From positions 1 to 42,713 of the IMG/VR virus record IMGVR_UViG_2636415959_000003: 42,713 bases of DNA; one strand, 5' to 3'. The first letter of the stretch is position 1; each line of letters opens with the position of its first letter. This document shows positions 3,440 to 41,042 of the stretch, piece by piece. Below the pieces are notes generated by a model. That model did not search any database. It was not told where the DNA came from and worked only from the letters and a program-made list of their open reading frames with translations. This DNA comes from a virus. Lineage: Duplodnaviria; Heunggongvirae; Uroviricota; Caudoviricetes. The position numbers were made by a program, and so were the translations under genes.

Positions 3440-4635
3440 GAGGTCACCGTGATAGTGACGTGACTCGCAACGCATGACGCAGATTCGTCATAAGCAATAT
3501 CGATATTTCCGCTTGCGACTGAGTCAGAGGATTTGCCGATGAGCAGCTCCTGAATGTCGTAATAGCGAGCACTGCCTCCGCTTACCACGCCAAGGTTTGC
3601 CGGGGAATAAATACGACTCAGCAGAACGTCATCGCCAATTGCCAGGCCATTTATATAATCGGCAACAGCCTGTTTAATCTGCTCGCCGATTTGAGAGGTA
3701 TAGCCGGTAAAAACTTTCAGGGTAATGGCTACGAAAATTGGCACATCGGTAGAGCGCGAAAAACTGATGACGTGTGGATTACCGTAAGTATCCGGCACCG
3801 TGACAGAAGTTTTACCGTAAGTTGCGGTTCCCTGCCCTTTATTCCCCCTGATGGTCTGGGCTATCTCGGTAACATCCCCTCCATCGACGATGGCGGAAAT
3901 AGAGTGTGGCGGCAGCCCGTTGCTGTCGGTTGCCCCAGTGTCGTTCTCATATAGTTTGTGACGTGTCACGCCAGCAACATTAGCGATAGCACCGTCGACA
4001 CCTTCAAACGGTGTGATCGATGGTAGCGCGACGCTTTGCCCCTGCCGAATGCGCAGCTCTGCGTCGGTTTCGGCTGGTGAACCGACAGTAGCCGCAACTG
4101 GATTGGTTACCGACACCCAACCTCGGGTCGGGGTGTTGATAGTGGTAATAGTCCCGGCCAGCGCCGCAACCGAACCGCTATTCGCACATGTGGCCGTCAC
4201 CAGCACAGTACCATCAACGCCGATCGCTACACTTGCGGGAAAATTCCAGATAATGCCGTTTTTATCCCGTGCGGAGCCATTCGTGATAGTCGTGCCTGCC
4301 GTACCGGTTAACAGAAGGTCAGCAGTAGAGTTTGTCGCTACTTTTCGCGTGATCCCGTTAATTTTCACATTGCTGCTAAGCGCTGCGGCCTGCGCTGTCG
4401 TCGGTGAAAAAGAGTTGTAGATCCCGATAGCGGTATTGTTAGCGTCATGCACCGCAAGAGCCACCAGCGCGACCATTTGCCCATCTTTGCTGTCTGGTTC
4501 GAGGTAGGCATCACTACCGTAAATCTGCCTGAAATAGCTGGTCAGTGTATCTAGGATTGTCTGGTAATCAGGCGCACTAATCCCCTGGGCGGTTACCGTT
4601 GCCGATAGCCCCAGCGTGTCGAGGTTCAAAGCCAT
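3436..4635 (-). CDS. Baseplate J-like protein (Mu gp47 / P2 gpJ-like)
   Basis: 399 aa; position and size in a myovirus baseplate cluster. Confidence 0.6.
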   Translation of the reverse strand: MALNLDTLGLSATVTAQGISAPDYQTILDTLTSYFRQIYGSDAYLEPDSKDGQMVALVALAVHDANNTAIGIYNSFSPTTAQAAALSSNVKINGITRKVATNSTADLLLTGTAGTTITNGSARDKNGIIWNFPASVAIGVDGTVLVTATCANSGSVAALAGTITTINTPTRGWVSVTNPVAATVGSPAETDAELRIRQGQSVALPSITPFEGVDGAIANVAGVTRHKLYENDTGATDSNGLPPHSISAIVDGGDVTEIAQTIRGNKGQGTATYGKTSVTVPDTYGNPHVISFSRSTDVPIFVAITLKVFTGYTSQIGEQIKQAVADYINGLAIGDDVLLSRIYSPANLGVVSGGSARYYDIQELLIGKSSDSVASGNIDIAYDESASCVASHVTITVTS

Positions 4636-4989
4636 TTATGCCTCGCTTGTTACAGTCGTCTGGCCGTAGATTGTGTCAATGGAGGAAGTGAAGGTGACGC
4701 GACGGCTGGTGCCGTCATAATTGGTATCAAAGGAAAGAATCGACAGAACGCCCGGTGTGTCCTGTATGCGTTCGCGTATAGCCAGGATGTAGACGTCAGA
4801 ACGCTGCTTACCCAGCACTGACTGGACATACGGCGTGCCTTCTGTCAGGTCGAGAAACCACTGACCTCGCCACAGCTCGAAACGGGTTTTTACGGCCTGG
4901 GCAACGCACTCCGGGCTGTCGATAAGGAAGGTGTTGTCACCCTGCCCGAAAGTGTAATCGCCGTCAGCATCTTCGCGTCGGTATCGCAT
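4636..4989 (-). CDS. Small baseplate protein (gp46 / gpW-like, tentative)
   Basis: 117 aa between spike and J-like genes; coupled stops and starts. Confidence 0.45.
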   Translation of the reverse strand: MRYRREDADGDYTFGQGDNTFLIDSPECVAQAVKTRFELWRGQWFLDLTEGTPYVQSVLGKQRSDVYILAIRERIQDTPGVLSILSFDTNYDGTSRRVTFTSSIDTIYGQTTVTSEA

Positions 4990-5729
4990 TATTGCGGCCC
5001 TCCGGTAGTTCCCCCGCCAGTCTGTACTCCGCCATGTTTATGCGTGGCGACACTGATACCAGAAGCTGTTACGTCATTCGTTACCGTCACCGGCCCAAGC
5101 ATCGTCGCAGTACCGCCGCTTTCTCCCATTCCCTGAGACAGGTTACCGTTAATCGTTACGTTGCCGTTCAGCGTGATAGTCGGGGATGTGATTGTCGTTC
5201 CACCCTCAGCCGTAGCCGTGAGCTGGCCCGGTGTTTGAACGGTGATGTTATGTCCTGCGGCAACCTCTACGAACGCCGCACCATCATCGGTTCGCAGCTG
5301 CGCGGCGCTGGTACTGATACCGCTGATTTTCTGTGCTTGCGACTGCGGGCCAACGATGGCGAACGCATCAGATAAGTCATGCTGGCGCGGGTCGACGGTC
5401 TCCTGAACGCCGCCGCTCTGCCACCAGAAATCGATACAACGGTCGGCAAAGATCAGCAGGCACTCATCGCCTTCTTTTACCGGAAAGGTCAGCGTGCAAC
5501 CACCGCCGCGAGGAAAGATAACCGGCACATCCACCAGCGGTTTTAATTCGGTGGAGCCGTCGCCAACAATACCGCGAAGCGCCACCTCTGCTGTGCAGGT
5601 AACAGTATCAGGATCGAACGACTGAATGATGCCAGGCATCGCTACGCGCATCTGGGTAGACACCGAATCGGCAATGGCCTGCGCGGTCTGCTGCTCTCCG
5701 CCGATCTGTGATTGAGTTGGAATTGGCAT
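4989..5729 (-). CDS. Baseplate spike/hub protein (Mu gp45 / gpV-like)
   Basis: Start MPIPTQ at 5729 with GGAG RBS. Gly/Thr-rich C-terminus (HKHGGVQTGGGTTGG). Confidence 0.5.
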   Translation of the reverse strand: MPIPTQSQIGGEQQTAQAIADSVSTQMRVAMPGIIQSFDPDTVTCTAEVALRGIVGDGSTELKPLVDVPVIFPRGGGCTLTFPVKEGDECLLIFADRCIDFWWQSGGVQETVDPRQHDLSDAFAIVGPQSQAQKISGISTSAAQLRTDDGAAFVEVAAGHNITVQTPGQLTATAEGGTTITSPTITLNGNVTINGNLSQGMGESGGTATMLGPVTVTNDVTASGISVATHKHGGVQTGGGTTGGPQ

Positions 5730-29511: not shown

Positions 29512-30201
29512 TCACACCATCCCGTTCGACTTGTTGCGGTTGTACTTGGCCAGCAGCAGCTGGATCGGCGTCGGCCCTTGCTCGGCAGCTGGTGCGGCAA
29601 TAGCCCGGCGTACCGGCGGCACTGGCTTACCCTCGGTGACGCGCCTTTCCCACATGTCCAGCAGATCGCCTGCCTCGCGTGCCAGTTCACCATGCGTTAA
29701 CTGGCGCTCGGTGCTGCGGTGGCGCAATTCTACGCAAATGTGGTACATGACCGGCTGCGACCATGGAAATTGCTCGCTGGAGATGAATTCGAACGAGCGG
29801 TTACGCCAGTCCCAGTATTCGGCGATCACCTGGTCAACGTTGACGCCCAGCGCGCCGCCGCTCTGCTTGCACCAGGCGACGAACTGGCCCGGCGACGGCA
29901 GGAATGGGCGCTCCTGGCGGCGGGCAATGCGCATGCCGGCATCGACCTGAGCCATGGTGTGGATCCCGTTCTCCTGAAACGCCAGCAGCCACTGACGGCG
30001 GAATTCGTTCAGGTCTTCCTGGGTGCGGAAGTTCGCCATGCTGGCCGGGAACGCGGCGCGCAGCTCGTTGAACAGCTTGTTGAATACCTGCGCCACCTGC
30101 TCGACCGGCGCGCACTCCTGGTACTGCTCTGGCAGGTTATGGGCCATGCGGCTCATCTGCTCGCGGTCGTGGTTACGCATCTGCTCTGCAAGAGATTTCA
30201 T
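29512..30201 (-). CDS. P: Replication protein P (DnaB helicase loader)
   Basis: MKSLAEQMRNHDREQMSRMAHNLPEQY…RPFLPSPGQFVAWC closely matches lambda P as recalled. Confidence 0.85.
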   Translation of the reverse strand: MKSLAEQMRNHDREQMSRMAHNLPEQYQECAPVEQVAQVFNKLFNELRAAFPASMANFRTQEDLNEFRRQWLLAFQENGIHTMAQVDAGMRIARRQERPFLPSPGQFVAWCKQSGGALGVNVDQVIAEYWDWRNRSFEFISSEQFPWSQPVMYHICVELRHRSTERQLTHGELAREAGDLLDMWERRVTEGKPVPPVRRAIAAPAAEQGPTPIQLLLAKYNRNKSNGMV

Positions 30202-31106
30202 CGGATCACCCCATAGGCCCAGTCAGTGTTGTTGAAGTCCAGATCTGGCTTGACAGCGCGCTGCTCACCTCCGGCGTTACGCTGCATTGTCAGCTTGTCC
30301 CACTGCTTACGCAGGCTTTCGGGACTCAGGATGTTGGTCTGCCAGAAGTGGTGTTTGCTAGCCCAGTCATACAGCGCGCAGATGTCCTGGTGCGACCGGT
30401 TGTCTATCTGGCGCATCAGGCGAACAGTGTTAGACCAGGAGGTCATGTCCGGGGCTTTGCAGGTTGGGTTAATCAGCTTCACCCTGGAGGAAATCCACTT
30501 AGCTGTCTCGAGGTCTTCAGCAGAGCCCCACTTCGCACCGGATGGTGTGTAGACCGCAGCTTCAGGATGAGTTGATAAAAATTTCTTCAGACGTGCGTCA
30601 GAGGATTCGTCAGAATTCTCGGACGAAGATCTTTTAATACTGTTCTTGTTCTTGTATTGGGTGTCTACCGTTTTCGGGAAGGTTATTCCTGATTTCGGGA
30701 AGGATTTTCCCGTTTTCGGGAATTTTCTTCCCGTTTCCGGTTTGTCTAAAATCCATGCTGAAAGGTCAGTGTTTACACCGACGATTTTCATCATGCCCTG
30801 CTTCTGTGAAAAGATGATTTTGCGTTCTGCGAGAGACTTAAGCGCGTCCGATACATGCGTATCGCTCAGGCCCGTAAGCTCGGCAATAACCGTATTTGTC
30901 ACGCGGTCCTGTTTCTTGTTCCAGCCGTAGGTAAGCCAGATCACCGCCTCAAAACATTGCCATTCCCGGCCTGACAGTCTCAGGCGAGGCTTAAGCTGTT
31001 GGATCTCGTTAGCGACCTTGGTATACCCGTTCGACAGGTCGGCCATACGACCTCCCGGTTGTTCGGTTTTATTTGGGAAATTGATTATTTCAGCGGTGTT
31101 TGACAT
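30198..31106 (-). CDS. O: Replication initiator O
   Basis: MSNTAEIINFP…TYGWNK…SSENSDESSD…NTDWAYGV closely matches lambda O as recalled; GGGAG RBS. Confidence 0.9.
   Translation of the reverse strand: MSNTAEIINFPNKTEQPGGRMADLSNGYTKVANEIQQLKPRLRLSGREWQCFEAVIWLTYGWNKKQDRVTNTVIAELTGLSDTHVSDALKSLAERKIIFSQKQGMMKIVGVNTDLSAWILDKPETGRKFPKTGKSFPKSGITFPKTVDTQYKNKNSIKRSSSENSDESSDARLKKFLSTHPEAAVYTPSGAKWGSAEDLETAKWISSRVKLINPTCKAPDMTSWSNTVRLMRQIDNRSHQDICALYDWASKHHFWQTNILSPESLRKQWDKLTMQRNAGGEQRAVKPDLDFNNTDWAYGVIR
30668..30743. repeat. Replication origin iterons (four TTTCGGGAA-containing repeats) inside the O gene
   Basis: Iterons tgatTTCGGGAAgga / ccgTTTTCGGGAAttt etc. at about 20-bp spacing, followed downstream by an AT-rich tract. 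Confidence 0.7.
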
Positions 31107-31143
31107 ACTTACTCCCGTTACTTGGCGTAACACAGTGTGATAA

Positions 31144-31191: not shown

Positions 31192-31734
31192 TCATATAAC
31201 CCCCAGCATCGATGTAACCATCGTCATCAGTGGGCCTGCCTGCTCCGGCATGAGGCGGAAGAGCGACGCTATACCCTCGCTTACCTCTTTCAGCTTCTGA
31301 TGCTCTGGAGCGTCCAGCAGCACGGCCTGTTTAGCCTCTGCGAGTTCTTTCTCGGCCTCAGCCAGGCGAGACATTTTGCAATCGGCACCGATCAGGCGAG
31401 TGCGATACTCAACCGGCAGGACCGCCATGATTGCCGGTGTCAGCTGGCGCACGTTCTCGCGGTACTGCTCAGAGTCGAAGCGGTTATCCAGAAAGCGAAA
31501 TAGCTTCTGCCGCGCCCGGCTGATGTCTTCCGGAAAGCTGATGGCGTTCCCGCCCTGCTCCCGGTATTCGTTGATGATCAGCGCCGAAACGACGTCCTGA
31601 TTGTCCAGCGCCGACGACCATGCCCGGACCGCATCGCGGATCTTTTCGTGGTCTGGCGCCGCCTTAGGTTGAGCGCGGTTTATCATCGCTCCCGGGTGTA
31701 TTCCGGTATTGTGTTGATACGCAAGTGAATGCAT
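31192..31734 (-). CDS. YdaT-like protein in the cII position
   Basis: LIINEYREQGG…LTPAIMAVLPVEYRTRL resembles Rac prophage YdaT as recalled. Start at 31734 or 31686. Confidence 0.5.
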   Translation of the reverse strand: MHSLAYQHNTGIHPGAMINRAQPKAAPDHEKIRDAVRAWSSALDNQDVVSALIINEYREQGGNAISFPEDISRARQKLFRFLDNRFDSEQYRENVRQLTPAIMAVLPVEYRTRLIGADCKMSRLAEAEKELAEAKQAVLLDAPEHQKLKEVSEGIASLFRLMPEQAGPLMTMVTSMLGVI

Positions 31735-31985: not shown

Positions 31986-32102
31986 GTTTTGCTCCGCTCA
32001 TGTGTAATCAACACCATGTTAATTCATGATGTGGATTAAATCAACATTATGGTGATGGAAAAAATCCACATGTTGTTTACCATGCATGGAGCGGAGGGTT
32101 TT
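31986..32102. promoter_or_regulatory. Right operator/promoter region (OR with PR and PRM)
   Basis: Minus-strand promoter TTGATT-17-TAACAT with the motif ATCCACATCATG between -35 and -10. Further copies of ATCCACATG/AAATCAACA motifs in the cI-cro spacer. Confidence 0.6.
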
Positions 32103-32813
32103 ATGAGTAGCATTTCTGAAAGAATTAAATTTTTACTGGCAAGGGAAGGCTTGAAGCAGCGGGATTTGGCTGAGGCTTTGTCGACTAGCCCACAGACCGT
32201 CAACAACTGGATAAAAAGAGACGCGTTAAGTCGTGAGGCGGCGCAACAAATATCTGAAAAATTCGGTTATTCTCTTGACTGGTTATTAAATGGAGAGGGT
32301 TCTCCAAAGAAGGATCTGGAGAGCAACATCCCGCCAGAGTCTGAGTGGGGAACTGTCGACGCTTGGGACAAAAATACCCCCCTACCTGACGATGAGGTGG
32401 AAGTACCGTTTCTGAAGGATATCGAGTTTGCGTGTGGTGATGGGCGTGTTCATAGCGAAGATCATAACGGCTTTAAACTGAGGTTCTCCAAGGCAACGCT
32501 CAGAAGGGTGGGTGCAAATAGTGATGGTTCTGGAGTGCTTTGCTTTCCCGCTTCTGGTGACAGCATGGAGCCCGTTATTCCTGACGGCGCAACGGTAGCA
32601 GTCGATACAGGCAACAAGCGGATTATTGACGGCGAACTCTATGCTATTAACCAGGGCGATTTAAAGCGCATAAAGCAGCTTTATCGAAAGCCTGGTGGGA
32701 AGCTATTAATACGAAGCATCAATCGCGATTATGACGATGAAGAGGCTGATGAGGCAGATGTCGAGATAATCGGTTTTGTGTTCTGGTACTCGGTATTGCG
32801 ATATCGCCGATAA
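32103..32813 (+). CDS. cI: CI-type repressor (HTH_XRE plus LexA-like S24 autopeptidase domain)
   Basis: N-terminal HTH (KQRDLAEALSTSPQTVNNW), C-terminal GDSMEP…K catalytic Ser/Lys pair; GGAGGG RBS. Confidence 0.9.
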   Translation: MSSISERIKFLLAREGLKQRDLAEALSTSPQTVNNWIKRDALSREAAQQISEKFGYSLDWLLNGEGSPKKDLESNIPPESEWGTVDAWDKNTPLPDDEVEVPFLKDIEFACGDGRVHSEDHNGFKLRFSKATLRRVGANSDGSGVLCFPASGDSMEPVIPDGATVAVDTGNKRIIDGELYAINQGDLKRIKQLYRKPGGKLLIRSINRDYDDEEADEADVEIIGFVFWYSVLRYRR

Positions 32814-33079: not shown

Positions 33080-33559
33080 ATGGATAAAATTAATTACCCA
33101 CCCCTGTTTGAGCCAGGGCTCCATGACATGGATGAAGCTGGATTAAAATCGTATTGTGTCGATTGCTTTCCTTCATCATCCAGGCGAGGCATGCTATACT
33201 GTAATTTTATACAGCTACTCGAATCTATTCGAGAATTATCTGCTCAATATGGCTGTTTTACAGAAATATGGGTTGATGGTTCATACACCACGTCTAAACC
33301 AGAGCCTGATGATATTGATATTTTGTTGGTATGTGACTATAGCAATATAAACTCAATACCTGTCATGCTTCGGGGCCGCGTCGATAATTTGCTTGACCGA
33401 AACTACATCAAACAAAACTACAAAATTGATGTCCTACTACTCATGAAGAATTTAGATGACCCTAACTATGATTATGAGTACTGGCGTAGCTACTGGCGCG
33501 GTTGGTTTGGTTTTGATCGCAGTGAAAACCCGAAAGGGTTAGTGAGGATTTTTTTATGA
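33080..33559 (+). CDS. Nucleotidyltransferase-fold protein (minimal Pol-beta-like NTase), cargo gene A
   Basis: 159 aa; WVDGSYTTSKPEPDDIDILLV fits the hG[GS]-x9-13-DhDh NTase signature, with a later acidic residue (KIDVLLL). AT-rich; AAGG RBS. Confidence 0.55.
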   Translation: MDKINYPPLFEPGLHDMDEAGLKSYCVDCFPSSSRRGMLYCNFIQLLESIRELSAQYGCFTEIWVDGSYTTSKPEPDDIDILLVCDYSNINSIPVMLRGRVDNLLDRNYIKQNYKIDVLLLMKNLDDPNYDYEYWRSYWRGWFGFDRSENPKGLVRIFL

Positions 33560-34488
33560 ATGATAAATCAATGTTTAAAAATTGCGATAAACGCATTGAT
33601 TTCATTCAAAAAGAAGTCGATGCAATGAAGCAAAACAAAACCAGGTCCTTTGCTGACATGCTTCTTTATCGCTCCATGGATTCTCATCTGAGCGATTTGA
33701 AGGCCGAAAAATTAAAGCAAGATAGTCGGCACCCACTTATCGATTTTTTTGAGCTGCGGCTGAAAGGCTCTGAGGTTGACTTTGGCTCTATTCCTTTAGA
33801 GCTGCTTGGGGCTATTTCAACAAATCTTGCAGCGCTAATACAAAGAGCAACACACAAAATTGCCTCAGGCAAGGACTCAAAAAAAGTTCCCTACGACGTG
33901 AAAAGCTCCTTAAACCTCAGGCTGGCTGATTTATCCCCTGGGTCTACAAAATTGGGCGTCACCTTCTCTACAGGAATAGCAGAATTAGTAGAAACAGTAC
34001 CCAGCAAGGCTGTAAAAGGCATATTCGATTTGTTGTTAAGCGATGACGACAACAACTTCATGAATCACGTCGCTGAAATTGGATACAATTCCACTGTAAG
34101 CCTTAAGAGAATCGTAGAGGAATGCGATAAACACAACTTAACATTTGATGCAAGTTGGACCGGTCCATTTAGTAATGGCACCAAGGTGGCAACTATTGAC
34201 TCCAATAAAATTAAGTACTTGGTGAGTAGACTTACATCAACCATTTCATCCCCTCCCATTACTGAAACGGTTACAGGCGAACTGGTCGTTCTATCCAAAT
34301 ATGGGAAGCTGGAGCTTGATGTTGGTGGTGAACATTTAAAGGCTTCCTATCCGATTGAAATGCTAGATTTAATACAAAAAAAACACAAGGTCGGACAGAT
34401 TGTTTCTCTTTTAGTGGAGACTACTGAGATTCACAATGATCGCATAGGTCTGTACCGTAAAAACCATCTTGTTAAATCGGTTCTTTAA
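33556..34488 (+). CDS. Hypothetical 310-aa protein, cargo gene B (partner of the NTase-fold protein)
   Basis: ATGA overlap with gene A (33556-33559); no TM segments. One Rx4H match (RSMDSH), not diagnostic. Confidence 0.55.
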   Translation: MNDKSMFKNCDKRIDFIQKEVDAMKQNKTRSFADMLLYRSMDSHLSDLKAEKLKQDSRHPLIDFFELRLKGSEVDFGSIPLELLGAISTNLAALIQRATHKIASGKDSKKVPYDVKSSLNLRLADLSPGSTKLGVTFSTGIAELVETVPSKAVKGIFDLLLSDDDNNFMNHVAEIGYNSTVSLKRIVEECDKHNLTFDASWTGPFSNGTKVATIDSNKIKYLVSRLTSTISSPPITETVTGELVVLSKYGKLELDVGGEHLKASYPIEMLDLIQKKHKVGQIVSLLVETTEIHNDRIGLYRKNHLVKSVL

Positions 34489-36698: not shown

Positions 36699-37670
36699 AT
36701 GAGCGAAGTAACGGACTTAACTGTCATCGAAATCAAGCCGGAGCAGGCGCCAGTGCTTTACGTAGCCGGCGGCCTTGACGCTTATCTCGAACAGATCCGC
36801 CAGGCAGTAAACGAAGTGCCGGACCTGTCCACGAAGAAAGGCCGTGACCGTGTTGCCTCTCTGGCAGCACAGGTGTCCCGCAGCAAGACGGCAATCGAAA
36901 AGCCGGGCCGTGAATACCTGAAGCGCCTGAAAGAGGCTGTGCGCCCTGCTGAGGCCGAAATTAAGCGTTTCGTTGATGCCTGTGATGAGCTGCGCGACGC
37001 CACCCGCCGACCACTCACCGAATGGGAAGCCGAGCAGGAACGAATCCGGGTGGAAGAAGCTTGGAACGCCATGCACGAAGAAGCACTGGTGATGAACAAG
37101 ATGTTCGATGACCAGCGCGCCGCGCAGATCGAAGCAGACCACGAAATGGCTCTGCTGATGAATGACAAGTTTGACCGTGACCGCGAAGAGCAGCGCCGCC
37201 AGGCGGAACAGGCACAGCGTGAACACGAAGAGCGCATTAAGCACGAAGCGGCAGAACAAGCCCGCCGCGATGCCGAAGCGAAGCACAAAGCAGAGATAGA
37301 AGCTGCAGCGCGCCGTGAAGCTGAAGAGAAAGCACGTGCAGAAGCTGCGGAACGCCTACGCATTGAAACGGAGCAGCGTGCGGCGCGTGAGAAGCAGGAA
37401 GCGGAAGCCCGGGCGGAACGCGAAAAAGCCGCGGCGGTTGAAGCCGAGCGCCTGAAGGCAAAACAGGCCGAAGATGCTCGCCTGGCCGAAGAGAAGCGCA
37501 AAGCCGACGAGCAAGCCAAGCGCGAAGCTGACGTGAAGCATCGCAAGACGGTCGGCACCAACATCGTTAACGCGCTCACCAGCCACACCAGCTTAACCCG
37601 CGAACAGGCTATCGAAGTGCTCACCGCACTGAAAGATGACCTGATCCCCTGCGCGAAAATTCATTACTGA
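36699..37670 (+). CDS. Protein with long Ala/Glu/Arg/Lys-rich coiled-coil region (TolA-like low complexity)
   Basis: ATG at 36699 with AGGAGA RBS; 323 aa; highly charged central repeats. Confidence 0.55.
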   Translation: MSEVTDLTVIEIKPEQAPVLYVAGGLDAYLEQIRQAVNEVPDLSTKKGRDRVASLAAQVSRSKTAIEKPGREYLKRLKEAVRPAEAEIKRFVDACDELRDATRRPLTEWEAEQERIRVEEAWNAMHEEALVMNKMFDDQRAAQIEADHEMALLMNDKFDRDREEQRRQAEQAQREHEERIKHEAAEQARRDAEAKHKAEIEAAARREAEEKARAEAAERLRIETEQRAAREKQEAEARAEREKAAAVEAERLKAKQAEDARLAEEKRKADEQAKREADVKHRKTVGTNIVNALTSHTSLTREQAIEVLTALKDDLIPCAKIHY

Positions 37671-37677
37671 GGCAGCC

Positions 37678-37956
37678 ATGAACGCATACCTCACTTACGA
37701 CCGCATCGAAGATCGGCGGTGGGTTGAGCAGCAGCTCACCGACGAGAAAGAGAAGTGGATCGACGACCGGGCGAAAGAGTTGATCGCCATGTTCCCTGCG
37801 AAACCTCTGGAAATGAGCAGCTTGTTCCTGCCCCAGGAAGCCCAGTTTGCGCTTATCGGAGAAAAGGCCGAAGAGGCATACAACGAATACATTTCGGCCT
37901 GCGCATATGCCCGCGCCGAAGAAGAATGGCAGCGTCAAGCGCCCTGCCCGTTCTAA
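37678..37956 (+). CDS. gam: Gam-like host-nuclease (RecBCD) inhibitor
   Basis: MNAYLTYDRIEDRRWVEQQ… resembles the lambda Gam short form (MNAYYIQDRLEAQSW…) as recalled; position upstream of annealase and exo. Confidence 0.65.
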   Translation: MNAYLTYDRIEDRRWVEQQLTDEKEKWIDDRAKELIAMFPAKPLEMSSLFLPQEAQFALIGEKAEEAYNEYISACAYARAEEEWQRQAPCPF

Positions 37957-37965
37957 GGAGTGATC

Positions 37966-38883
37966 ATGAGCTTAACCCTTGTTGATTTCGTCAAACAACA
38001 GGAGCCGCTTTTCATTAAGGCGGCCACTGACGAGCGGATGGTGTGGGCGAAGGAAAGTCAGTTCGCCATCCAGCTATTTCAGAACAACGACTACCTCGCG
38101 AAAGTCGCTTTCCAGAACCAGACCAGCACACAGAACGCAATCATCAACGTTGCGGCTATCGGTATTTCGCTAAACCCAGCTCAGAAGCTGGCTTACCTGG
38201 TTCCGCGTAAAGGGGCTATTTGCCTAGACATCAGTTACATGGGCCTGATGCACATCGCGCAGCAGTCTGGCGCCATTAAGTGGTGCCAGTCGGCTATTGT
38301 TCGAAGAAACGACCAGTTCCGCCGCGAGGGGCTCGATAAGCCGCCAATCCACATCTACAACGACTTCGATACTGAAGAGCAGCGCGGGGACATCGTAGGC
38401 GCGTATGTAACGGTAAAAACTGACGATGGTGATTACCTCACCCATACGATGCGCATCGATGCCATCTACTCCATCCGTGACCGGTCTGAAGCATGGAAGA
38501 AGTACAAATCTGACAACAGCAAGAAGTGTCCATGGGTCACCGATGAAGAGCAGATGATCCTAAAGACGGTCGTGAAGCAGGCAGCAAAATACTGGCCTCG
38601 ACGTGAGCGCCTGGATGCCGCCATCGACCATGTTAATACCGAGGGTGAGGAAGGTATCAACTTTACAGCAGAGCGTCAGCCTGAGCGCGATATAACGCTG
38701 CTTAGCGAAGCCACGCAGAAAGAGATAAACGACCTCCTTGTCTCTTTGGATAAGACATGGGATGCCGATCTTCTCCCTCTCTGTTCACGCATTTTCAAAC
38801 GCCCTATCTCGCAGCCAGCCGACCTAACAGAAATGGAAGGTGTTAAGGCTCTCGGGTTCCTCAGGCAAAAGGCGGCAGCATGA
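37966..38883 (+). CDS. Single-strand annealing protein: RecT-family core with lambda Bet-like C-terminal tail
   Basis: Core has RecT-like motifs (…[18 protein letters not shown]…, [10 protein letters not shown]). C-terminal about 80 aa ([11 protein letters not shown]…[17 protein letters not shown]…[13 protein letters not shown]) resembles the lambda Bet C-terminus as recalled. AGGAG RBS. Confidence 0.75.
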
Positions 38884-39560
38884 CACCAGAAATTATCCTG
38901 GCCCGGACCGGTATCGACGTAACTACTATCCAGCAAGGCGACGAGGCATGGCACCGGCTGCGCCTCGGCGTTATCACCGCCTCTGAAGTGCACAACGTCA
39001 TCGCCAAGCCAAGATCGGGAAAGAAGTGGACAGACATGAAAATGTCCTACTTCCACACGCTGCTCGCCGAGGTATGCACAGGCGTCGCGCCAGAGGTTAA
39101 CGCCAAGGCGCTGGCCTGGGGCAAGCAGTATGAAGAAGACGCCCGTGCTCTCTTCGAGTTCACAACGAACGTAAAAGTCACGGAGTCTCCGATCCTGTTC
39201 CGTGACGAGAGCATGCGCACTGCGTGCTCTCCTGACGGCCTTTGTAGTAACGATTTCGGCCTTGAACTGAAATGCCCATTCACCTCCCGAGACTTTATGA
39301 AATTCCGCCTTGGCGGTTTTGAAGCCATCAAGTCTGCGTACATGGCCCAGGTGCAGTACAGCATGTGGGTGACCGGAAAAGACGCCTGGTTCTTTGCCAA
39401 CTACGACCCGCGCATGAAGCGCGAAGGAATTCACCACATCGTCGTTGAGCGGGATCCGCAATACATGTCCGAGTTCAACGAAATGGTGCCGGAGTTCATT
39501 GAGAAGATGGACGAGGCGCTGGCGGAGATCGGATTCACGTTCGGGGAGCAGTGGAAATGA
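38880..39560 (+). CDS. exo: Lambda-type exonuclease (Red alpha)
   Basis: [14 protein letters not shown]…[23 protein letters not shown]…[12 protein letters not shown] is near-identical to lambda Exo as recalled; ATGA coupling. Confidence 0.9.
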
Positions 39561-39985: not shown

Positions 39986-40140
39986 CTCACGCTCACGACG
40001 ACATCAGGGTTGGCACACTGTGCCTTCCCTGGCTCAAAGAGAAAAACGGATGGTTGCTGCCGTGGGGTGATGTCGTTACCAACCCACTGAAGGCGCAACG
40101 ACTGGCTGAAGAACTTAACGAAAAGCAGGTGGCAGCATGA
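39982..40140 (+). CDS. Small hypothetical protein (52 aa), not in ORF track
   Basis: ATGA-coupled at both ends, filling the gap between neighbouring genes. Confidence 0.35.
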   Translation: MTHAHDDIRVGTLCLPWLKEKNGWLLPWGDVVTNPLKAQRLAEELNEKQVAA

Positions 40141-41042
40141 ATTACGGATTTGTAAGTGTTTGCGTTGAGCAATTCAATGAAGCGGTTAAGCTGCCACCCG
40201 CACACAATCCAGCATCACGAATTTGGCAGCGCCCGTTCCTTAAATGGGCTGGCGGCAAATATTCGCTGCTGCCGGAACTGGATCGCCTGATCCCCGCAGG
40301 GAAACGCCTTATTGAGCCTTTTGTGGGTGGCGGCTCGGTGTTCCTTAACTCAGACAAGCACGAACGCTTTCTTCTGGCTGACGTCAACGCTGACCTGATT
40401 AACCTGTATCAGATGCTGGCGGTGGTCCCCGACTCGGTGATCTATGAGGCAATGAAGGCATTCAGGCATCTGAATGATGCCGAAAACTACACGGTAATTC
40501 GTGAAGCATTCAACGCGCAGCGGCTGGATGCGGTCGAGCGCGCAGCAGCGTTCCTTTACCTCAACCGGCACTGCTTCAACGGGCTGATCCGTTATAACCT
40601 GGACGGTTTTTTTAACGTCGGCTTTGGGAAATATAAAGCGCCATATTTCCCGGAAGAAGAGATCAGGGCATTTAAGCGGAAGGCTCACGCATGCGTATTC
40701 ATGAATGCAGGCTTCAGGCGCACGCTCGCGCTGGCAGGTGATGGTGACGTCGTTTACTGCGATCCGCCTTATGAACCGCTGCCCGGCACCGCTGGTTTCA
40801 CTAACTACGCGGCTGGTGGGTTCTCATGGGATAGCCAGGTAGAGCTTGCGGAAAGCTGTGTGGCAGCCCACCAGCGAGGTGCAAAAGTGGTGATCAGCAA
40901 TTCTACCGCTCCGCGCGTAATTGAACTTTACGAACAGCACGGCTTCACGCTGCACCGCGTCAATGCTCGCCGGGCTATATCCTGCAAAGGCAGCACCCGC
41001 GAAACAGCGAGTGATGTCGTAGCCACTTTGGGGGTGCAGTGA
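40137..41042 (+). CDS. dam: DNA adenine methyltransferase (Dam-like, orphan)
   Basis: DPPY catalytic motif (VVYCDPPYEP), N-terminal SAM-binding region; 301 aa. Confidence 0.85.
   Translation: MNYGFVSVCVEQFNEAVKLPPAHNPASRIWQRPFLKWAGGKYSLLPELDRLIPAGKRLIEPFVGGGSVFLNSDKHERFLLADVNADLINLYQMLAVVPDSVIYEAMKAFRHLNDAENYTVIREAFNAQRLDAVERAAAFLYLNRHCFNGLIRYNLDGFFNVGFGKYKAPYFPEEEIRAFKRKAHACVFMNAGFRRTLALAGDGDVVYCDPPYEPLPGTAGFTNYAAGGFSWDSQVELAESCVAAHQRGAKVVISNSTAPRVIELYEQHGFTLHRVNARRAISCKGSTRETASDVVATLGVQ

Follow-up and report, generated by a model that had tools for sequence, protein, structure and literature searches.

The systems closest to the recombination operon analysed here are the Red module of phage λ, the RecE/RecT pair of the Rac prophage and the gamL, rec and exo genes of phage φ80. 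In the crystal structure of the λ complex, helix E of the exonuclease Exo (T90, L91, F94, T95) enters a pocket of the annealase Bet (Redβ) that is made up of L223, I227, F249 and L250; mutation of λ L91, F94, L223 or F249 abolishes the complex, peripheral polar contacts are dispensable, and pocket mutants lose both Exo binding and double-stranded DNA (dsDNA) recombination (PMC6393309). The Redβ C-terminal domain uses the same pocket to bind the C-terminal peptide of SSB, the protein that binds single-stranded DNA (PDB 8TFU, 8TG7; PMC6393309). Rac RecT pairs with RecE, and the literature describes it as non-functional with λ Exo. The RecT of φ80 was characterised by De Paepe et al. only as having '32% identity with Redβ', and deletion of its gene lowers phage–prophage recombination, especially between diverged sequences (PMC3945230). 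For recombineering it matters in practice which part of an annealase determines the exonuclease that it works with; a 2023 review states that it is unknown if RecT-type annealases use a Bet-like C-terminal domain. [quoted passage not shown] Here we analyse a locus that, with its relatives, offers a natural experiment on this question. It lies in a 42,713-nucleotide stretch of virus DNA (IMG/VR record IMGVR_UViG_2636415959_000003, positions 1 to 42,713; the whole stretch is called the window below), where an annealase with a RecT-type core and an apparently transplanted Bet tail is encoded beside a λ-type Exo, and where the tail follows the exonuclease and not the core.

Our overall reading, to which we assign a probability of roughly 0.8, is that the window carries a φ80-type recombination operon with a chimeric annealase, that the tail of this annealase docks Exo, and that the tail–exo unit has been shuffled among annealase cores. 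A literature search, which did not cover the φ80 genome paper, Iyer 2002 or the supplements of the 2025 survey, found no explicit account of φ80-type RecT as a chimera of a RecT core and a Redβ tail.

The annealase is a two-part chimera

We compared the window annealase with λ Bet and with E. coli Rac RecT. The sole part that BLASTP aligned to Bet was residues 229-304, which matched Bet 180-255 without gaps (49/76 residues, 64% identity, E 9e-31). The core, in contrast, gave no BLASTP alignment to the λ Bet core (residues 1-177) and no PDB match to Redβ177 by either sequence or Foldseek search, and a profile built from eight cores reached an hhalign probability of just 2.7% against λ Bet. It is homologous instead to Rac RecT (29% identity over 164 residues, E 2e-15), to which the tail could not be aligned in the pairwise comparison. 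A preliminary description of this DNA had proposed a RecT-like core followed by about 80 Bet-like residues; these alignments bear that out, since the discontinuity in similarity is real and far above chance, and similarity to either reference protein did not run through the whole annealase.

Family libraries gave the same division. The core matches Pfam PF03837 at residues 31-213 (E 1e-29, 103.6 bits; cut-off 24), and the annealase matches TIGR00616 (55.7 bits; cut-off 52.65). λ Bet itself also matches PF03837, the Pfam 'RecT family' (E 3e-33), and the term 'RecT-like core' therefore separates the two proteins at the level of the subfamily, not of the Pfam family. Among PHROGs, the core corresponds to the RecT-like phrog_148 (E 1e-70) and the tail to the C-terminal third of the Bet-like phrog_252; the tail by itself matched no Pfam family in a Pfam scan. 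A phmmer search of PDB sequences matched residues 232-304 to the Redβ C-terminal domain (8TFU, E 2e-26; 6M9K_D, E 2e-19) and residues 34-210 only to Listeria RecT (7UB2), weakly (E 0.008). The tail had been taken for the part of λ Bet that contacts Exo, and residues 229-304 do correspond to the crystallised Exo- and SSB-binding domain.

The boundary was also mapped by structure prediction. An AlphaFold2 model of the annealase, made from an alignment of 25 sequences, has a mean predicted local distance difference test (pLDDT) score of 65; residues 224-242, between core and tail, score below 50, and helices 248-260, 265-277 and 289-304 form a three-helix bundle with pLDDT 84-93. Foldseek matched the modelled bundle to 6M9K_D with a template modelling (TM) score of 0.92 and a root mean square deviation of 0.4 Å; the modelled core, with pLDDT 50-70, matched Listeria RecT (LiRecT, 7UB2_E) at E 1e-4 with a TM score of 0.51 normalised to the target. 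The PDB sequence library, PHROGs and the structure model thus divide the protein at the same place. The annealase is a natural two-part chimera, composed of a RecT-subfamily core (residues 1 to ~225), a disordered linker and a Redβ-type three-helix domain (~248-304). By its family membership, the core would bind DNA, form oligomers and anneal single-stranded DNA.

The tail and its probable exonuclease partner

To see with which nucleases such annealases are encoded, one genome per species was scanned with an alignment of the core, which turned up 80 loci; their cores share 42-100% identity with that of the window. An Exo-family gene adjoins the annealase in all 28 loci where the annealase has a Bet-type tail: 26 of these genes encode a full-length λ-type Exo (scores of 288 bits or more, and 49-95% identity to that of the window), one is a pseudogene fragment and one a distant member of the Exo family. 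In the 52 loci without the tail, λ-type Exo is found in none; 25 have a distant YqaJ-family nuclease (24-43% identical) and 27 have no nuclease. None of the relatives of the core examined in this 80-locus scan was found to have a RecE-like nuclease as its neighbour. Pairwise identities correlate at r = 0.81 for tail and Exo, 0.68 for core and tail, and 0.69 for core and Exo; as the loci are phylogenetically related, these correlations, and the Fisher p-value of 5e-19 for the association of tail and Exo, overstate independence.

The same association was seen in phage sequences. In a phage collection searched with tblastn, the tail was located in 277 records, and an Exo of 60% identity or more in 276, with the records for tail and Exo numbering 140/141 for Escherichia, 26/26 for Stx2a, 24/24 for Stx1a and 17/17 for Klebsiella by organism name. 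All 80 viral contigs of the mEpX1 type lack both the tail and Exo. Locus searches with a single protein (λ Bet or mEpX1 RecT) each returned 80 near-identical copies and are used here as counts, not as a measure of diversity. Where a tail-bearing locus in the viral-contig sets lacks a full-length Exo, the end of the contig cuts the locus short.

The residues through which λ Bet and Exo interact are largely retained in the window pair. The pocket residues L223, I227, F249 and L250 of Bet are all identical in the window annealase, as L272, I276, F298 and L299, and the window Exo keeps the helix-E docking residues Q83, D87, L91, F94 and T95, with alanine in place of T90. A rewired version of the pair is found in Morganella, Proteus, Xenorhabdus and Moellerella (loci L270-L276, L290 and L291), with F or Y at tail position 223, K or R at 227 and M at 249, and with T or S at Exo position 91 and Y at 95 (λ numbering). 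Present on two different core subclades, this rewired pair fits co-evolution of tail and Exo and their joint transfer, and it may reflect few evolutionary events. Covariation between Bet Q226 and Exo T90 was considered as well; it was promising in 7 reference phages and dissolved among 152 unique tail/Exo pairs, where the combinations of residues 226/90 were Q/T in 39, Q/A in 26, R/T in 23, K/A in 12, K/T in 10 and R/A in 9.

An alternative is that shuffling is real, but that the tail is selected for binding of host SSB (or for the tuning of oligomerisation), and is associated with Exo by being its neighbour in one transferred block. This would agree with the shared pocket for SSB and Exo in the Redβ C-terminal domain, and with the extent of the block that is diverged from φ80 (described below), which covers the tail together with the first ~35 exo codons, as linked transfer predicts. 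We nevertheless consider it unlikely. Tail-less relatives in the same enterobacterial hosts, where the SSB tail is the same, use other tails when λ-type Exo is absent; the helix-E residues by which Exo contacts the tail are conserved; the rewired lineage substitutes tail and Exo positions matching λ contact residues together; and in λ, mutation of the pocket costs both the binding of Exo and dsDNA recombination.

Probable exchange of the tail between annealase cores

One trace of exchange lies between the window and φ80. Their annealase cores (residues 1-228) are 100% identical as protein, and their tails 61%. In sliding windows, DNA identity to φ80 is 95-100% at 37975-38634, drops in the diverged block listed in Table 1, which begins at about 38665 and ends at about 38990, and rises again 3' of it. 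The fall, from 98-100% to 62%, occurs between sliding windows starting at 38605 and at 38665, which puts the breakpoint at ~38650-38665, that is, at the junction of core and tail. Nine of the 14 differences between the window and φ80 Exo fall at residues 15-48. The breakpoint adjoins a stretch encoding AERQPERD, and the underlying motif, GCAGA.CG.CAGCC.GA.CGCGA, is conserved in the window, φ80, Enterobacter phage CobraSix, ENT47670 and λ bet.

Similar patterns can be seen among other relatives. All 80 viral contigs with cores 70-100% identical to that of the window have a Bet-type tail of 77-79 residues, and within this set protein-identical cores bear either a 'window' tail allele (91-99% identical to the window tail) or a 'φ80' allele (~61%); in one contig, a core just 81% identical to that of the window is joined to a tail that is 91% identical. 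Among 101 loci of this core type, 799 pairs share at least 97% identity in the core, and in 290 of these the identity of the tails is below 70%; in 41 pairs, tails of 90% identity or more stand on cores below 85%. More widely, the Bet-type tail occurs on three core types that BLASTP could not align with one another, namely those of λ Bet, of φ80-type RecT and of the annealase of Klebsiella phage ST512-KPC3phi13.1, and a λ-type Exo (85-94% identical to that of the window) follows the annealase in all three. Relatives with 55-60% identical cores, among them those from mEpX1, Aeromonas phage phiA005 and Vibrio phage 1.198.B and from many genomes, have unrelated tails and no λ-type Exo; their neighbours are a MuGam-like gene, SSB or a distant nuclease. 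In a neighbour-joining tree of the cores, which carries no support values, tail-bearing proteins fall into several separate clades, requiring at least six changes of tail state by Fitch parsimony.

These observations bear on the possibility that no shuffling took place, and that the annealase is a vertically inherited Bet/RecT homologue in which the core diverged fast and the tail was held by the constraint of binding Exo. The match of both λ Bet and the window annealase to PF03837 does mean that the cores share a remote ancestor, and the tail is visibly constrained, with its interface residues conserved. Vertical descent is, however, very improbable, because the same core subfamily bears unrelated tails in the three phages just named and in 52 genomes, because protein-identical cores carry two markedly different tail alleles with a sharp DNA breakpoint between core and tail, because closely similar tails are found on dissimilar cores, and because the tail is scattered over the core tree. 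An origin of the chimera in faulty assembly or annotation of the window has no observation in its favour and can be dismissed with near certainty, as the same architecture is present in φ80, CobraSix, 69 complete E. coli genomes and 80 viral contigs, and in the 120 best-scoring protein clusters, from many genera, of the 5909 proteins that match the annealase at E <= 1e-5.

The breakpoint, the three core types, the alternative tails, the changes on the tree and the co-occurrence with Exo together argue for the domain shuffling suggested in the preliminary description, in which the Exo-binding tail is kept and the core is swapped. They support the view that the tail and exo form one evolutionary unit, which recombination at the conserved linker, or close to it, appears to have joined to different annealase cores. 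The result is incremental, since the genes are already known and annotated and since lambdoid phages are normally mosaic at the boundaries of domains; a chimera as such is not surprising.

In the reading that we prefer, a chimeric annealase docked on Exo, the proteins of the operon would act in succession. GamL would block host RecBCD, and Exo, an orthologue of λ Redα, would resect double-strand ends in the 5'-3' direction. By analogy with λ, helix E of Exo (L91, F94, T95) would insert into the tail pocket (L272, I276, F298, L299), so that the C-terminal bundle would hold the annealase on each Exo subunit, at the trimer face from which the 3' strand emerges, and the annealase would be loaded onto that strand. 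It would coat the emerging 3' strand, which its RecT-type core would anneal to the complement, and the same tail pocket may afterwards bind the C-terminal tail of host SSB. The loading step of this scheme is modelled on its λ homologue. The φ80 RecT deleted in the recombination experiments cited above has a core that is identical in protein sequence to that of the window annealase.

Several points weigh against this reading, in addition to the relatedness of the loci and the unsupported tree mentioned above. Tail and exo are adjacent, and their co-occurrence could partly reflect physical linkage, not functional need. The peripheral contacts of the λ complex are changed in the window pair (Bet Q226 to R, R229 to K and E256 to A; Exo T90 to A, L184 to I and Y186 to H); in λ, alanine at Bet Q226, R229 or E256 leaves the complex intact, and Exo T90, L184 and Y186 are not among the positions tested (PMC6393309). 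Contacts near the Redβ N-terminus have also been reported to aid binding of λ Exo (PMC5052646), and the window core has no equivalent of the Redβ N-terminal region. The core was modelled with medium confidence only, from a shallow alignment. Finally, it is from homology with λ that the window tail is predicted to bind Exo and SSB.

A bolder proposal, for which we put the odds slightly below even, is that the ~77-residue tail works by itself as a portable adaptor, which alone determines pairing both with λ-type Exo and with the SSB of enterobacteria, and that it passes, as a cassette with exo, from one core to another that is otherwise unrelated, by recombination at the conserved AERQPERD linker. 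If this is true, grafting of the tail could make any RecT-family core compatible with λ Exo for dsDNA recombineering, and the rewired lineage would provide a second, orthogonal specificity pair (F/Y223, K/R227 and M249 with Exo T/S91 and Y95). Since the tail tracks Exo rather than the core, the hypothesis on specificity is directly testable. It suggests a design rule for the engineering of annealases, and in this sense the domain-level chimera is a modest but useful insight.

The operon in the window and among known systems

Four open reading frames (ORFs; 323, 92, 305 and 226 residues) are closely packed on the + strand at 36699-39560 (Table 1), those of the annealase and Exo lying where the preliminary description had placed them. 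The annealase starts at ATG 37966; inspection of the sequence excluded GTG 37960 as the start, because the Shine-Dalgarno-like AGGAG precedes that ATG at a spacing of five bases. The rec gene of φ80 is annotated in the same 305-residue frame.

Table 1. Coordinates of the recombination operon and of its parts (positions in the window)
Feature	Position	Strand	Size and basis
Agt/Mog-like protein	36699..37670	+	323 aa; 77% identity to φ80 Agt (PHI80_40); PHROG 1376
GamL, φ80-type host-nuclease (RecBCD/SbcCD) inhibitor	37678..37956	+	92 aa; NCBIfam NF033500
Shine-Dalgarno-like AGGAG	37956..37960	+	sequence inspection; five bases 5' of annealase ATG 37966
Annealase ORF	37966..38883	+	305 aa
Annealase residues 1-228, RecT-subfamily core, putatively ssDNA-annealing	37966..38649	+	Pfam PF03837, PHROG 148
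Predicted flexible linker, ~residues 224-247	38635..38706	+	AERQPERD patch and breakpoint ~38650-38665
Annealase residues 248-305, Redβ/Bet-type C-terminal three-helix bundle	38707..38883 (incl. stop codon)	+	Bet homology, predicted fold
λ-type 5'-3' exonuclease (Exo/Redα)	38880..39560	+	226 aa; 85% identity to λ Exo
Block diverged from φ80: tail and ~35 first exo codons	38665..38990	+	55-77% DNA identity; flanks 85-100%

The stop codon of the annealase gene and the start codon of exo overlap by four bases (ATGA), as in λ. Other arrangements of this junction were noted. In five viral contigs with a core identical to that of the window (L014, at 4415-5035, and L015, L019, L043 and L048), an extra ORF stands between rec and exo; in L014 it encodes 206 residues with a weak HTH_28 match only and starts at the ATGA overlap, and the Exo that follows has a different and longer N-terminus (249 residues in all). 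In Yersinia phage vB_YenM_22, the place between rec and exo is taken by a homing endonuclease.

Exo had been described as near-identical to λ Exo. It is indeed λ-type and highly similar, aligning over its full length without gaps, but 192 identical residues of 226 and a DNA identity of 77% fall short of near-identity. It matches Pfam YqaJ (PF09588; E 1e-31, 110.5 bits, cut-off 22) and has kept D119, E129, K131, R28, R45 and L78, which are catalytic or substrate-binding residues of λ Exo by established knowledge and a 2023 review.

The 92-residue protein, which had been called a λ-type Gam, proved to be a GamL of the φ80 type. It matches NCBIfam NF033500 (phi80_GamL; E 4e-45, 151.7 bits, cut-off 40) and PHROG 1050, and is 80% identical to φ80 GamL. 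A Pfam scan, in which λ Gam itself scores 215 bits (1e-64) against the Gam family PF06064, gave no match to this family for the 92-residue protein, and its likeness to λ Gam is confined to 18 of 39 N-terminal residues. A sequence search of the PDB returned no relative of GamL. The 3' two-thirds of gamL (37768-37945) have 58-78% DNA identity to φ80 and CobraSix and 92-100% to the E. coli M37H prophage; with this second diverged block, the module is a patchwork of at least three sources. The Agt-like gene upstream stands where φ80 has a gene with the annotation antitoxin/modifier of GamL. The first ~116 residues of its product are nearly identical to φ80 Agt and the remainder is diverged. The protein matched no family in a Pfam scan, and neither it nor the product of the 144-residue ORF 3' of exo had a PADLOC match. 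The agt-like gene is missing from the otherwise closest modules, those of CobraSix and E. coli M37H.

Downstream of exo, the 144-residue ORF is followed by an intact D12-class adenine methyltransferase gene (40137-41042, +; PF02086, E 2e-58), the φ80 counterpart of which, damL, is annotated as a frameshifted pseudogene, and then, at the end of the window, by a tyrosine integrase gene on the opposite strand. Elsewhere in the window, a low-G+C island (33080-34488, +; 0.40-0.43) lies just downstream of the gene for a CI-like repressor (32049-32813); both ORFs in it match PDC-M63, a candidate defence system in PADLOC, component A at E 4e-41 (with a match also to Pfam DUF6932) and component B at E 8e-45. 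An ORF of the YdaT_toxin family (31192-31734, -; PF06254, E 1e-29) is located between the repressor region and λ O/P-like replication genes (29512-31133). The structural half of the window (1-24000) is 95% identical, at 74% coverage, to Citrobacter phage Omnitron, and also resembles myovirus-like Escherichia and Hafnia phages; its genes are unrelated to the virion genes of φ80.

Compared with λ Red (6M9K), the operon has an orthologous Exo with the catalytic and helix-E residues, a homologous tail with its predicted three-helix fold and its pocket, and the same overlap of annealase and exonuclease genes. It differs in the core, which belongs to the RecT subfamily, in the inhibitor, which is GamL and not Gam, and in the end of the tail, which comes five residues sooner than in λ Bet, without Bet E256-A261. 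With Rac RecE/RecT it shares the homologous core and common Pfam and TIGR00616 families; Rac RecT, however, has no Bet-type tail, and its partner is RecE. RecT proteins of the mEpX1/HK140 type are closer in the core (59% identical, PHROG 148), but have an unrelated tail of 81-85 residues, no exonuclease gene and a MuGam-like gene downstream. In these Exo-less relatives (for example L004, where the tail of mEpX1 RecT lies at 3646-3903, and L173-L252), the different tail is itself conserved, and its match in the PHROG 148 profile is to the C-terminal part.

The module is frequent among the prophages of enterobacteria. Over the 1.9-kb region, DNA identity is 88.7% to φ80, 93.2% to CobraSix and 94.4% to the M37H prophage. 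The region is present at a coverage of at least 80% in 69 of 5426 complete E. coli genomes, including those of DH5α, DH10B and TOP10, common cloning strains that carry φ80 sequences, and the module may thus matter for background recombination in such strains. Full-length relatives of the annealase occur in Salmonella, Citrobacter, Leclercia, Enterobacter, Klebsiella, Cronobacter and Kosakonia, among others.

In φ80 itself (Lula; JX871397), PHI80_39, PHI80_38 and PHI80_37 are annotated as gamL, rec ('RecT; bet') and exo, with agt upstream, as in the window, and the 144-residue ORF, the dam-like gene and int downstream. The Exo proteins of the two are 94% identical. The differences from φ80 are the diverged tail allele with the adjoining exo codons, the diverged 3' part of gamL, the state of the dam-like gene and the structural genes, which resemble those of Omnitron instead. 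Judged by sequence, the gene set is the one already known and annotated from φ80, of which the window copy represents a distinct tail allele. Since the structural half is Omnitron-like and not φ80-like, the φ80-type early-left operon (agt-gamL-rec-exo) sits here in a different phage backbone, that of a lambdoid prophage.

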